Virus genome (UHGV): UHGV-0116607
Reading direction: 5' to 3' (one strand)
Length of the DNA: 25,764 nucleotides
DNA from: a virus
The notes below the pieces were generated by a model. That model saw nothing but the letters and a program-made list of their open reading frames with translations. It was not told the DNA's origin and made no database searches. Of this stretch, positions 3,317-25,764 are shown piece after piece. The number at the start of each line of letters is the position of its first letter. Within the stretch, counting starts at the first letter, position 1. Made by a program: the position numbers and the translations under genes.

Positions 3317-4648
3317 ATGGCCGACATTTACCTCCCGACGCTGCATGACGGGCAGTTAAAGGTCTGGTCAGATTCCTGGGAAGGTCAACTGCACGCGGTC
3401 CGGTGTGGTCGCCGCTGGGGTAAGACCTTCATGCTTTCCAGCGCTGCGGTGACCTACGCTACAGCGCCGTTTAAGCGTCCGGGCATGGACATTGAACTCG
3501 GTGGCCGTGTCGGTATCTTCACAGCTGAGTACCGCCAGTATCAGGAGATCTACGACAAGCTCGAAGAAATCCTGCTGCCGCTGAAAAAGAGCTTCAGCCG
3601 GCAGGAAAAGCGCCTGCTGCTGAAGAACGGCGGGAAGATTGACTTCTGGGTCACCAACGACAACAAACTGGCCGGTCGTGGTCGTGAGTACGAAATTATC
3701 CTGATCGATGAGGCGGCGTTTACCAAGTCGCCTGAAATGCTGAAGGAAATCTGGCCGAAGTCGATTAAGCCGACGCTACTGACGACAAAAGGTCGGGCCT
3801 ACGTATTCTCAACGCCTGACGGTGTGGACGAAGAAAACTTCTTCTATGCCATCTGCCATAACAAAGACCTCGGCTTCCATGAGCATCATGCTCCGACGTC
3901 ATCCAACCCCTTCGTTCCTCCTGAGGAACTGGAGAAGGAGAGGGCCAACAACGACCCGCGCGTGTTCCGCCAGGAGTTTCTGGCCGAGTTCGTCGACTGG
4001 TCTGCCGCTTCGCTGTTCGACGTCCGCAAATGGTTCGAGGGTGAAAATCAGGATCAGCCTGTCGATTACCCTGAAATGTGCCAGGCCGTCTTCGCTGTCA
4101 TGGATACCGCCGTCAAAGGTGGATCAGAACATGACGGTACGGCTGTGGTGTATTACGCCGTCGACACCCGGCCCGGCATTCAGCGCCTCACCATTCTCGA
4201 CTGGGATGTGGTGCAGATTGACGGCGCACTGCTGGAGACGTGGATGCCGTCGGTGTTCGACCGCCTCAATGAGCTTTCCGGCCAGTGCGTTGCCATCAAC
4301 GGCAGCCTTGGCGTGTTCATAGAAGACGCCAGCATGGGCAGCATCCTCCTGCAGAAAGGCGAAAGCCTTGGATGGCCGGTCAACAAAATTGAGTCCGCCC
4401 TGACCAGCAAAGGAAAGGACGAACGCGCCATTATGGCCTCCGGTTATCACTACCGCGGGCTGGCGAAAATTTCCCGACACGCCTACGAGAAGACAGCCGT
4501 CTTTAAGGGCGAGACAGCAAACCATCTGCACAAGCAGGTTTCCCGATTCCACCTTGCCGACAAGAAAGCGCATAAGCGCGCCGATGACCTTCTCGATGAT
4601 TACACCTACGGGCTGATCATCGCCTTCGGCAGCGGCGACGCAATCTGA
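3317..4648 (+). CDS. Terminase large subunit (ATPase/nuclease)
   Basis: 443 aa; Walker A-like CGRRWGKT near the N-terminus; Walker B-like YEIILIDEAAF; immediately follows terS. Confidence 0.8.
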   Translation: MADIYLPTLHDGQLKVWSDSWEGQLHAVRCGRRWGKTFMLSSAAVTYATAPFKRPGMDIELGGRVGIFTAEYRQYQEIYDKLEEILLPLKKSFSRQEKRLLLKNGGKIDFWVTNDNKLAGRGREYEIILIDEAAFTKSPEMLKEIWPKSIKPTLLTTKGRAYVFSTPDGVDEENFFYAICHNKDLGFHEHHAPTSSNPFVPPEELEKERANNDPRVFRQEFLAEFVDWSAASLFDVRKWFEGENQDQPVDYPEMCQAVFAVMDTAVKGGSEHDGTAVVYYAVDTRPGIQRLTILDWDVVQIDGALLETWMPSVFDRLNELSGQCVAINGSLGVFIEDASMGSILLQKGESLGWPVNKIESALTSKGKDERAIMASGYHYRGLAKISRHAYEKTAVFKGETANHLHKQVSRFHLADKKAHKRADDLLDDYTYGLIIAFGSGDAI

Positions 4649-22642: not shown

Positions 22643-23593
22643 ATGGCACTCACACTTTTAGCTGCCAACAATGCGCAGACTGTGCTGGCGGCAGGAATTA
22701 GCGCATCAGCAACTTCTTTGACTGTTAACTCAGGAACCGGATCACTGTTTCCTGCGCCATCAGACGGAGTAAGTTTTTTTAAGTTAACCCTGATTGATGC
22801 GGCAACCGGGCAACTCACCGAAATCATGCATGTAACCGCGCGCACTGGTGACACCATGACGATCGAACGCGGCCAGGAGGGAACGACAGCCCGCGCATGG
22901 TCAGCGAATGATATCGCAGCAAACATGATGACCGCCGGCACTCTTAACTACATCCTGGACAATTTTCAACCCTTAGATGCAACCCTAACGGCATTGGCTG
23001 GGCTGGCAACCGGTGCAAATAAACTCCCGTATTTCACTGGAACTGATACAGCTGCGCAGACTGATTTAACTTCTGTTGGCCGTGACATTATTGGGAAAAA
23101 TACTATTGCTGACATTCTCACATACCTTGGTTTGGGAGAAGGTTCGGCATTACCCGTTGGTGTGCCTGTCCCGTGGCCTTCCGCCACTCCGCCAACAGGC
23201 TGGCTGAAATGCAACGGGGCTGCTTTTTCGGCTGAAGAATACCCGGAACTGGCAAAGGCTTACCCGACAAATAAATTGCCTGATTTACGCGGTGAATTTA
23301 TTCGTGGCTGGGATGACGGACGTGGTGTGGATGCCGGGCGACAATTATTATCTTCACAGGGGGATGCAATAAGAAATATTGAGGGATTCGCAGATGGCGG
23401 GATCGGCATGTCTTTTGATGCAATCAGAGGGGCTTTTTACGATGCAGGAACACGATCAGCGACAATGGCGAATAACACAACTGCTATAGGCAAAACCGAT
23501 GACCTTGGATTCGACGCCTCTCGTGTCGTGCCAACAGCTAATGAAAACCGTCCACGTAACATCGCCTTTAATTATATTGTGAGGGCTGCATAA
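22643..23593 (+). CDS. Tail fibre protein (constant N-terminal part + invertible C-terminal variable part with tail-collar-like domain)
   Basis: 316 aa; GGAGGA ribosome-binding site; C-terminal region has the tail-fibre collar signature (…GWLKCNGAAFSAEEYPELAKAYP…LPDLRGEFIRGWDDGRG…); a hix/gix-like recombination site lies within the coding sequence at 23115-23140. Confidence 0.8.
   Translation: MALTLLAANNAQTVLAAGISASATSLTVNSGTGSLFPAPSDGVSFFKLTLIDAATGQLTEIMHVTARTGDTMTIERGQEGTTARAWSANDIAANMMTAGTLNYILDNFQPLDATLTALAGLATGANKLPYFTGTDTAAQTDLTSVGRDIIGKNTIADILTYLGLGEGSALPVGVPVPWPSATPPTGWLKCNGAAFSAEEYPELAKAYPTNKLPDLRGEFIRGWDDGRGVDAGRQLLSSQGDAIRNIEGFADGGIGMSFDAIRGAFYDAGTRSATMANNTTAIGKTDDLGFDASRVVPTANENRPRNIAFNYIVRAA
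23115..23140. repeat. Left recombination site (hix/gix-like 26-bp site) inside the tail fibre gene
   Basis: TTCTCACATACC-TT-GGTTTGGGAGAA: two 12-bp half-sites around a 2-bp core; 15 bp (23127-23141) is a perfect inverted copy of 24944-24958. Confidence 0.6.
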
Positions 23594-24186
23594 TGAAACC
23601 TGTTTTTGATGAAAATGGGCTGGCTACAGTACCGGGTAATATGCGTTGTTTTTATTATGAGGCAGTTACGTATGAATATACTGGCTGGTCTGATGAATAT
23701 ATTAATACTGGCGTAAGTATGCCCGCCTGTTCCACTGGTATTGACCCGGGCGAATACATTCCGGGAAGAGTGGCAGTATTTACGGGTAAGGGATGGAGCC
23801 ATGAAGAAGACCATCGCAATGAGACTGTTTACTCAACAGAAAATGGCGTAGCTGTTACAGTGGATTATATCGGTGCCATCAAAGACGGTTATGTCACGCT
23901 TTCACCGTTAACGCCATACGATAAATGGGATGGTGAGAAATGGGTGACGGATACCGAGGCACAGCATAGCGCCGCACTAGACGCGGCAGAAGTAAAGCGC
24001 CAGTCGCTGATTGATGCTGCAATGGCTTCCATCAGTCTGATTCAGCTGAAATTACGGGCCGGGCGGAAGCTGACGCAGGCAGAAACCACCCGACTTAACG
24101 CTGTGCTGGATTACATTGACGCGGTGGAGGCAACAGATACCAGCCCCGCGCCTGATGTCATCTGGCCTGAACTGCCGGAGGCGTAG
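23593..24186 (+). CDS. Tail fibre assembly protein (U-like)
   Basis: 197 aa; TAATG overlap with the fibre gene stop; C-terminus …LDYIDAVEATDTSPAPDVIWPELPEA matches the conserved tail-fibre-assembly C-terminal signature. Confidence 0.75.
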   Translation: MKPVFDENGLATVPGNMRCFYYEAVTYEYTGWSDEYINTGVSMPACSTGIDPGEYIPGRVAVFTGKGWSHEEDHRNETVYSTENGVAVTVDYIGAIKDGYVTLSPLTPYDKWDGEKWVTDTEAQHSAALDAAEVKRQSLIDAAMASISLIQLKLRAGRKLTQAETTRLNAVLDYIDAVEATDTSPAPDVIWPELPEA

Positions 24187-24597
24187 GCCATTCAATATCT
24201 GGCGCACTGGAAGTATCGACCAGTTCCAGTGCGCCAGATAATCCAGCCACAAATTATATTGCACCAGTTCCTCACCTTTCAGGCGACCAATCGCCGCTTT
24301 ACCAGGCCATTGCTTACTGTTTATGTATTCGTTGACCTGATTAATCAATTGCTGCTTTTTCAGTTCGGCTGCGGCAATTTGTTCCTCATGAGTTGGCGGT
24401 GGAATATCAATCCATGCAGGCATTCCGTCGATGACACCTCTGTATTTTCCTTCTGGTGCTTCCTTCATAAATTCGGCGGCAACAGTGTCGTCAATTTCGA
24501 TTCCATCATCGGGCCATTCGCCGGATTCCTGATAAGCGATTTTAAGCTCCACAGGGAAAAACGCATTTTTATCGGCACTGAAAATATATTTCTGCAT
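24052..24597 (-). CDS. Alternative tail fibre assembly protein (U'-like); apparent frameshift near the 3' end (possibly a pseudogene or homopolymer sequencing error)
   Basis: ATG at 24597; as read the frame runs to 24052, but the conserved C-terminal signature LELVDTSSAPDIEWPTPP is encoded in a different frame (encoded at about + 24180-24225, stop near 24160); a single missing G/C at about 24234-24235 would restore a product of about 145 aa. Confidence 0.5.
   Translation of the reverse strand: MQKYIFSADKNAFFPVELKIAYQESGEWPDDGIEIDDTVAAEFMKEAPEGKYRGVIDGMPAWIDIPPPTHEEQIAAAELKKQQLINQVNEYINSKQWPGKAAIGRLKGEELVQYNLWLDYLAHWNWSILPVRQILNGLRLRQFRPDDIRRGAGICCLHRVNVIQHSVKSGGFCLRQLPPGP
24196..24240. repeat. 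17-bp perfect inverted repeat with 11-bp spacer at the convergence point of the two tail fibre assembly genes
   Basis: TATCTGGCGCACTGGAA (24196-24212) … TTCCAGTGCGCCAGATA (24224-24240); lies just downstream of the U-like stop and inside the 3' coding region of the minus-strand U'-like gene. Confidence 0.7.
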
Positions 24598-24599
24598 TT

Positions 24600-24958
24600 C
24601 TACCGTCCTATCGAAATATAACTGAATCTGTATTGCTGTGAGATATCACTGGTTGCCACACGCCACGCTGAATTACTGATATGTTCAAAATTTACAGACA
24701 AAACCTGCGGGGCAGGACTCGACGGGTCTGACTGAACGGCATCAGACATAACACTGACTGAAACCATCGGCTGATTAGGGAATGGTATAGGGAAGTGTCC
24801 ACTGATAAAGCGGGTCGTGTTTCCTGAAAAAGTGCCAAACTGAACAATATATCCACCTGGTAGCCTGAACCATCCCGAACCAGAAGCGAATGCTCCCATA
24901 TCCGGTATCTGATTATCTCCTGTGCCCACATCCCTTTTCGCCGCTTCTCCCAAACCAA
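24600..24958 (-). CDS. Promoterless alternative tail fibre C-terminal cassette (S'v-like), expressed only after inversion
   Basis: Minus-strand ORF in frame with the fibre constant region across the recombination site (…GLGE|AAKRDVGTGDNQIPDMGAFASGSGWFRLPGG…); stop 2 nt before the U'-like ATG; no start codon or ribosome-binding site of its own. Confidence 0.6.
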
Positions 24959-24970
24959 CCTTTTTTATAA
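24945..24970. repeat. Right recombination site (hix/gix-like 26-bp site) upstream of the invertase gene
   Basis: TTCTCCCAAACC-AA-CCTTTTTTATAA; from memory closely resembles the hixL-type consensus; inverted relative to the left site. Confidence 0.6.
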
Positions 24971-25000
24971 CCATCAAAAATCTGGTGATGCTTCGCCGTT

Positions 25001-25023
25001 TCTCCTGTTTTCATAACAGGAGA
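25001..25023 (+). promoter_or_regulatory. Hairpin / palindrome covering the invertase ribosome-binding site
   Basis: TCTCCTGTT (25001-25009), loop TTCAT, AACAGGAGA (25015-25023); the 3' arm contains the Shine-Dalgarno AGGAGA, 7 nt upstream of the ATG. Confidence 0.4.
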
Positions 25024-25029
25024 AATCCC

Positions 25030-25578
25030 ATGATTTACGGTTATGCCCGAGTATCAACAAACCACCAGGACACTGAATTGCAACTAACGGCGCTCAAGTC
25101 AGCGGGTTGTGAGAAAATTTTTGAAGAGCATGCCAGCGGGAGGAAATCGAATCGGCCGGTTCTAAAACGGCTGATCGCCACTATGCAGCCGGGGGATGAA
25201 CTGGTGGTCTGGAAGCTGGACAGGATAGGCCGCAACGTTCTGCATGCGCTGTTGATGTTCCAGCAGTTACAGGAAAAGGGTATCAACTTCCGCAGTATTA
25301 CCGATGGCGTGGATCTCAAAACAGCCAGCGGCCGCTATAACTTTCGTAACATCCTTTCCGCAGCACAATATGAATCTGATCTTAATAGCGAACGTACCTT
25401 AGCAGGGCTGGCCGTAGCCAGGGCAAAAGGGCGAGTTGGTGGTCGCAGGCCTAAGTTCACGGATGAGCAATGGCGGGAAATGGGGGAGCGGATGGCAACC
25501 GGTGAATCACGACAAAGCGTATCAAAAACGTATGGAGTAGGGCTCTCAACTCTGTATAAAAAGTTTCCAGCTAGCTGA
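25030..25578 (+). CDS. Site-specific DNA invertase, serine recombinase (Hin/Gin/Pin/Cin family)
   Basis: 182 aa; N-terminus MIYGYARVSTNHQD with the catalytic Ser in the resolvase/invertase motif; C-terminal helix-turn-helix (…SVSKTYGVGLSTLYKKF); adjacent to the invertible segment. Confidence 0.9.
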   Translation: MIYGYARVSTNHQDTELQLTALKSAGCEKIFEEHASGRKSNRPVLKRLIATMQPGDELVVWKLDRIGRNVLHALLMFQQLQEKGINFRSITDGVDLKTASGRYNFRNILSAAQYESDLNSERTLAGLAVARAKGRVGGRRPKFTDEQWREMGERMATGESRQSVSKTYGVGLSTLYKKFPAS

Positions 25579-25599
25579 TAACGGGAAAGAAACAGAGAA

Positions 25600-25640
25600 G
25601 GGCACAAATATTGTGTACTTTAATGTGCCCTTTAATTTAT
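25600..25640 (+). terminator. Putative terminator after the invertase gene
   Basis: GGGCACA-(17 nt)-TGTGCCC followed by TTTAATTTATT; long loop, so moderate confidence. Confidence 0.35.
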
Positions 25641-25764
25641 TGATTGGTGGTTGAATTGTTCGTAACTTTTTGATTTAAGTGCAAATTTCTAATAAATTAG
25701 AACACTTTCTTAAAAGACTTTCTCTTCCAGAACTTCTCTAACCTGTGTTATTATTAACACAGAT

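Follow-up and report, generated by a model that had tools for sequence, protein, structure and literature searches.

A phi80-type prophage end at the secondary glgS–yqiJ site very probably accounts for the AT-rich tail of a viral contig from uncultured Escherichia coli

Introduction

In UHGV virus genome UHGV-0116607, a DNA invertase gene is followed by 186 bases, counted from its stop codon, before the sequence ends. The question raised by this tail (positions 25579–25764) is whether it belongs to the phage, to its host or to both, and what kind of element end, if any, it represents. The window, here and below, means the whole stretch of DNA that was analysed, 25764 nucleotides of one strand, and positions are numbered from its first base.

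Results

The tail and the genes that precede it

The window is the entire metagenome contig ERZ651884 NODE_981 (25764 bp, 4.4x coverage). A Pin-type serine DNA invertase gene was identified in the list of open reading frames at 25030–25578 on the plus strand (ATG at 25030, stop at 25576–25578), and a protein identical to its product carries Resolvase and HTH_7 domains (Pfam). It is the final phage gene ahead of the attachment site, like pinL in phi80, which is annotated directly upstream of attP. Beyond it the base composition falls to 30.6% GC, compared with 51.9% for the whole window, and there is no ORF of 40 aa or more in the tail except for a 90-aa antisense ORF (25335–25607) that overlaps the invertase gene. 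The first-pass annotation, which was made from the sequence alone and described the tail as AT-rich and non-coding, is upheld in this respect, there being no credible ORF. ARAGORN gave no tRNA gene at the boundary (0 genes), and an Rfam scan of the tail gave no family at threshold, the sub-threshold matches being irrelevant.

Upstream of the invertase, two opposed tail-fibre-assembly ORFs, at 23593–24186 (+) and 24052–24597 (-), are accompanied by a gp53-like fragment at 24600–24977 (-). The layout of this region (23593–24977) is typical of a Pin-invertible tail-fibre segment, and both orientations are found amongst related genomes.

The phage half of the tail

Positions 25579–25714 are identical to the attP of phi80 at 135 of 136 bases, to the corresponding sequence of HK225 at 134/136, and to an attR at yciI throughout (136/136). 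An attP is annotated at this sequence in the records of phi80 (JX871397), HK225, mEp237 and mEpX1, and in all of these free phages the same sequence runs through the core into int/xis. In JX871397 the annotated order is pinL, IHF site, attP core, int and xis, and HK225, like phi80, has int and xis immediately past attP. The matching stretch in the window comprises the P arm of a phi80-type attachment site, which is AT-rich, non-coding phage DNA (25579–25698), and positions 1–16 of the 17-bp phi80 common core AGAACACTTTCTTAAAT (25699–25714, plus strand). The core was defined as the identity between phi80 attP and the empty attB of MG1655. Its seventeenth base (25715) is in the window a host A and not T, as is expected at a crossover.

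Only two matches to the IHF consensus WATCAANNNNTTR are present in the 25.7-kb window, and both are in the P arm. These predicted sites, located on the minus strand by a consensus scan, are AATCAATAAATTA (25633–25645) and AATCAAAAAGTTA (25663–25675), the second lining up with the annotated IHF site of phi80 (JX871397, 24584–24596). The P arm also contains GAATTGTTCGTAA (25653–25665), which in inverted orientation matches TTACGAACAATTC in the phi80 P' arm at all 13 nt (3331–3343 of the phi80 piece compared); the pairing within phi80 itself is 12/13, and the copies bracket the core in the free phage.

On the minus strand, the phage DNA at 25697–25714 reproduces the 3' end of yciI (codons FKKVF and a TAA stop) and is identical to the yciI end in lysogens. 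The window sequence here, TTAGAACACTTTCTTAAA, is the reverse complement of the final five yciI codons and the stop, and the HK225 record labels attP as similar to yciI. Upon integration at the primary site this phage copy restores yciI; at the secondary site occupied here it is orphaned. Primary-site integration also changes the yciI stop from the TGA of the host to the TAA of the phage copy (window 25697–25699; 2070–2072 of the MG1655 piece compared) and swaps the native yciI terminator hairpin for the phage P arm, and the displaced host version of the yciI end stays at attL (TCAGAACAC in E. coli TC24).

The junction with the host chromosome

A three-way comparison of the window, attP and the empty site locates the point at which phage DNA ends. 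The window reads ...ctaataaaTTAGAACACTTTC - TTAAA - AGACTTTCTCTTCC..., the free phage ...TTAGAACACTTTC - TTAAA - TTGTCATTTGG..., and the empty K-12 site ...aaaaaaCCATA - TTAAA - AGACTTTCTCTTCC... (the site may also be given as AAAAAACCATA-TTAAA-AGACTTTC). The segment TTAAA (25710–25714, plus strand) is the sole stretch common to phage attP and the glgS–yqiJ site, and therefore marks the junction. From here to the end, 25710–25764 is 100% identical to C600/MG1655 between glgS and yqiJ. On the basis of this identity to K-12, 25715–25764 (plus strand) is E. coli chromosomal DNA of the glgS–yqiJ intergenic region, corresponding to the B' arm of a secondary attB. The last 55 bases fix the window end uniquely in the E. 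coli chromosome, and the window stops 66 nt short of the yqiJ start codon.

The first-pass annotation had suspected a prophage boundary or attachment region, had considered that the window ended too soon to tell, and had suggested a search for a host junction or tRNA and a comparison with the empty site. Its suspicion was correct: the region is a phi80-type att, with the phage/host junction at 25710–25715. Its reservation no longer holds, as the junction and 50 host bases are inside the window. The empty-site comparison identified the host part as K-12 glgS–yqiJ DNA with the boundary at TTAAA, and the junction search located an E. coli junction within the window, without a tRNA.

When the window was compared by megablast with 5426 complete E. 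coli genomes, the region 24900–25714 was matched at 94–99.6% identity; all of these matches end at 25714, and the invertase abuts yciI in nearly all the genomes listed. When the last 205 bases were searched with greater sensitivity, 25694–25764 fell at glgS–yqiJ in almost every E. coli genome, the glgS–yqiJ region being detected in 5419/5426. Both junction halves were found together in none of the 5426 complete genomes. The attR-type junction of the window was not found in IMG/VR or in species-representative genomes, nor was the predicted attL (...AAAAAACCATATTAAATTGTCATTTGGCAT..., AAAAATAAAAAACCATATTAAATTGTCATTTGGCATATTACG) found in complete E. coli genomes or IMG/VR. The window itself contains no int, xis or attL, and one of the two junctions is visible in it.

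By hand alignment, the glgS–yqiJ site shares 11 of the 17 core bases, TTAAA included; the yeeJ–yeeL and tsr–hpaR sites likewise score 11/17. A 13-nt direct repeat, 11/13 identical, spans the junction region: its first copy, TTAGAACACTTTC (25697–25709), is the phage yciI mimic and its second, TTAAAAGACTTTC (25710–25722), is host DNA. The secondary site thus resembles the core in a second register as well, and this likeness may help to explain the preference for glgS–yqiJ. The same spacer carries an IS1 in E. coli C10 (NZ_CP195940.1, about 3132250), approximately 15 bp to the right of TTAAA and equivalent to window position ~25728; the AT-rich glgS–yqiJ spacer has therefore been a target for mobile elements of different kinds.

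The primary site and the relatives of the module

The P arm is carried by 119 of the 5426 complete E. coli genomes, at 121 places, and lies at yciI in 60/60 carriers sampled. The exact window invertase protein adjoins yciI in all 10 contexts returned, and these contexts carry several different tail modules, indicating that pin-att is a mobile mosaic module. At yciI, tail architectures of at least three kinds are found joined to pin-att (lambda J-type siphovirus, Mu-type baseplate myovirus and E217/Wedge-type), which places a mosaic breakpoint just upstream of pin. A prophage between kch and yciI in E. coli TC24, with a copy of the core on either side, has 74% of the window's bases in common with it and encodes an Int identical to that of phi80 at 397/397 residues.

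Invertase modules lie near one end of Mu-type genomes, and the inverted repeat discussed below is at the very edge of the contig. From such features the first-pass annotation drew an analogy with Mu-like elements, in which case the tail would be the end of a Mu-like or other transposable phage and the 8-bp repeat a terminal or target structure. This is so improbable that it can be virtually dismissed. The sampled E. coli carriers use a single fixed site, the free-phage sequence continues into int/xis instead of ending, and E. coli without the phage already has the inverted repeat; the empty-site comparison refutes the proposal. In place of the Mu-like analogy, the data point to site-specific integration by a lambda-family tyrosine integrase.

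The inverted repeat and the hairpin

Both secondary structures described in the first-pass annotation are present. The inverted repeat at 25743–25762 consists of exact 8-bp arms, CTGTGTTA (25743–25750) and TAACACAG (25755–25762), separated by a 4-nt loop, ttat. Inverted repeats this good occur in 6.6% of composition-preserving shuffles of the tail, and there are seven in the window; the terminal one is only mildly unusual. It is host sequence, situated in the empty K-12 site 66–85 nt upstream of the yqiJ start codon, and its interpretation as a phage terminal structure fails, the repeat being chromosomal DNA of phage-free E. coli. It is perfect only in K-12-like alleles. In E. coli EC09 and in metagenome contig PPYF01462599.1 the repeat is imperfect (TAACGCAG), and O157:H7 and strain 190 have non-compensatory changes in both arms; in the strains aligned, the central GTTATTATTAAC is invariant and the outer three pairs vary without compensation. 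The exact repeat has 106 matches in species-representative genomes, mostly in unrelated taxa and at chance level, and amongst the Enterobacteriaceae representatives it occurs only in E. coli and Shigella. A CRP or LexA operator was also considered; in our own comparison the half-site spacing fitted neither consensus. The repeat shows no sign of a phage role, and the evidence for a conserved palindromic function, as read from these alignments, is weak.

The hairpin, placed at ~25600–25630 in the first-pass annotation, lies within the P arm at 25598–25632. Its 9-bp arms, AAGGGCACA (25598–25606) and TGTGCCCTT (25624–25632), pair perfectly around a 17-nt loop, giving a stem of 9–10 bp with a folding energy of -14.4 kcal/mol, and a T-rich run, TTTAATTTATT, is found 3' of the stem. 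It was not called in a consensus terminator scan of the tail, because its loop exceeds the length that the scan allows, and the 91 nt around it fold no better than shuffles (z = -0.76). The hairpin may represent a candidate weak bidirectional terminator. Its loop holds TGTGTAC (25612–25618), a motif with four copies in phi80 attP, three of them in the int-proximal arm just upstream of int. This pattern recalls the arm-type sites of lambda and makes the motif a candidate arm-type Int site.

It is conceivable, and compatible with a prophage end at this position, that the host repeat is an operator for a regulator of yqiJ or glgS, and that the hairpin of the P arm acts as an intrinsic terminator of pin transcription and, at the primary site, of yciI transcription from the opposite strand. 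The location of the repeat close upstream of yqiJ and its invariant centre are consistent with the former, as are the stable stem directly 3' of the pin stop and the T-rich run with the latter. We nevertheless consider this pair of functions rather unlikely. The uncompensated outer pairs, the chance-level count, the restriction to E. coli/Shigella within the Enterobacteriaceae and the spacing that suits neither CRP nor LexA argue against an operator. The long loop, the negative scan and the unexceptional fold argue against a terminator, for which the copies are near-identical and hence provide no covariation signal to assess.

A published insertion at the same position

Three phi80 prophages have been described in the Gerdes delta7–delta10 K-12 deletion strains (Goormaghtigh et al., 2018; PMC6016239). 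Phi80-1 is at the canonical site, MG1655 1310570; phi80-2, confirmed by PCR, is "between glgS and ygiJ" at 3192087; and phi80-3 is between yeeJ and yeeL at 2052027 (PMC6016239). Polylysogeny at secondary sites is attributed to Kholodii & Mindlin (1985), as cited in PMC6016239. In MG1655, TTAAA occupies 3192088–3192092, and the published 3192087 is the base just before it; similarly, 1310570 is the base preceding the 17-bp core, so that the coordinate convention is equal for phi80-1 and phi80-2. The site and crossover in the window are therefore those of phi80-2, to the base. The published PCR primers gave no guide to the orientation of phi80-2, as there is no match to the glgS primer in the 3 kb around the site and only an imperfect one to the phi80 R primer, inside pinL; the comparison therefore rests on the published coordinates. 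The boundary in the window is the result of a known mechanism at an already published site.

A second junction and the quality of the contig

An identical junction is present in an independent metagenome contig, PPYF01462599.1. The two sequences differ at five positions, four of them within the P arm and one on the host side, and the host flank of PPYF01462599.1 shows 100% identity to E. coli EC09.

The stretch of the window from the start of empty-site identity to the contig end (25710–25764) measures exactly 55 nt, and in PPYF01462599.1 exactly 79 nt precede the point of divergence from the canonical yciI junction (its positions 1–79). Both 55 and 79 are common assembler k-mer sizes. As the host part matches such a size, the window probably stops at an assembly-graph branch between the occupied and the empty site. 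The two lengths suggest that both samples also held an alternative path, either the empty site or a canonical lysogen.

The low coverage of a complete SPAdes-style contig, together with an end that suggests a graph branch 55 nt past the start of empty-site identity, could indicate an assembly artefact in which a phi80-type prophage end was wrongly joined to an unrelated region of E. coli. Such an error is highly improbable, as the joined sequences share just five identical bases, far fewer than any assembly k-mer, the same junction with different SNPs is present in an independent contig from another project, and its position equals that of the PCR-confirmed phi80 insertion in K-12.

Double lysogeny and rearrangement

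E. coli TC24 (NZ_CP171637.1, 4244892–4290640) is a natural double lysogen, in which a second prophage, with an identical phi80 Int and pin-att module, lies between tsr and hpaR. The junctions of this second prophage are ...AAAAACTTTATGAAAT|tgtcatt (attL) and ...AGAACACTTTATGAAAA|ggtgtaac (attR), and in both of them core positions 11 and 13 hold A and G (ATGAAA), which are not the phi80 bases. A and G on both sides are not what segregation of a heteroduplex overlap, if simple, should give; either mismatch repair acted, or the attP core of that phage was itself a variant.

Double lysogens of this kind, with two identical att modules, offer a route by which the right end of a yciI prophage could have been moved beside yqiJ, whether by inversion or translocation via an att-like sequence or by recombination between related prophages. 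With a single junction seen, insertion and rearrangement at the same crossover look alike in the window. We regard rearrangement as improbable all the same. Recombination between two prophages still needs prior integration at glgS–yqiJ, and lambda-family integrases are not known to carry out integration normally from an attR that has no P' arm. In addition, a complete phi80 insertion is documented at exactly this coordinate (PMC6016239).

Discussion

The tail is very probably the place where a lambdoid mosaic prophage with a phi80 pin-attP-int-xis module, inserted at the secondary site between glgS and yqiJ, meets host DNA on its right (an attR-type, P-O-B' junction). The identity of both halves, the position of the junction, its second occurrence and the fit with the phi80-2 coordinate were established directly. 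The boundary is an ordinary prophage end belonging to a well-known system.

The event may be pictured as follows. In the free phage, the order is the invertase, an AT-rich P arm with predicted IHF sites and a probable arm-type Int site, the 17-bp core, the P' arm and int. Normally, phi80 Int and IHF recombine the core AGAACACTTTCTTAAAT with its exact counterpart in the 3' end of yciI. In the source bacterium the same reaction, presumably also catalysed by Int and IHF, would have taken place at a degenerate secondary attB between glgS and yqiJ, with the crossover within TTAAA. The window accordingly contains the P arm and core positions 1–16, followed by host DNA. If the insertion at glgS–yqiJ is complete, as we infer, the reciprocal attL, with int, would adjoin glgS at a distance of some 20 kb or more on the left side.

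We tentatively suggest, though on balance the proposal is slightly doubtful, that the TTAAA between glgS and yqiJ is a recurrent secondary att80 site in wild E. coli, used perhaps when yciI is already occupied (polylysogeny). The two independent metagenome junctions would fit such recurrence, as would the double lysogen TC24, in which another secondary site is used. If this is true, insertion splits the divergent glgS/yqiJ control region and could alter expression of GlgS, a regulator of surface composition, or of YqiJ. The secondary phi80 site, known so far from contaminated laboratory K-12 strains, is now seen in uncultured E. coli with a different mosaic phage, which suggests that in nature phi80-type integrases bring about secondary-site lysogeny, and possibly polylysogeny, at a low frequency. 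For annotation, the contig should be treated as the right half of a phi80-att-type lambdoid E. coli prophage with its boundary at 25714/25715, and the inverted repeat at 25743–25762 should not be taken as a phage feature.

Amongst known systems, the phi80 attachment site (JX871397) has the same P arm and core, the same order of invertase then att, an IHF-consensus match at the same position and the same yciI-mimicking core. It differs in that the window contains the integrated attR form and not attP. Furthermore, the structural genes of the window are not those of phi80 but belong to a different mosaic lambdoid phage, related to the TC24 prophage. The phi80-2 lysogens share the chromosomal site, with the crossover the same to the base (MG1655 3192087/3192088), but arose from laboratory phi80 infections of K-12, whereas the window derives from an uncultured metagenome E. 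coli and a different mosaic phage. At lambda secondary sites, a tyrosine integrase recombines a degenerate core, and the crossover falls in a short stretch that matches the overlap region. The same logic applies in the window, although integrase specificity, core and primary site differ. In Mu (gin), P1 (cin) and e14 (pin), as here, a serine invertase for tail-fibre variants comes last before the prophage end. The ends of Mu are substrates of its transposase and are joined to near-random targets, whereas the end in the window is a site-specific att site.
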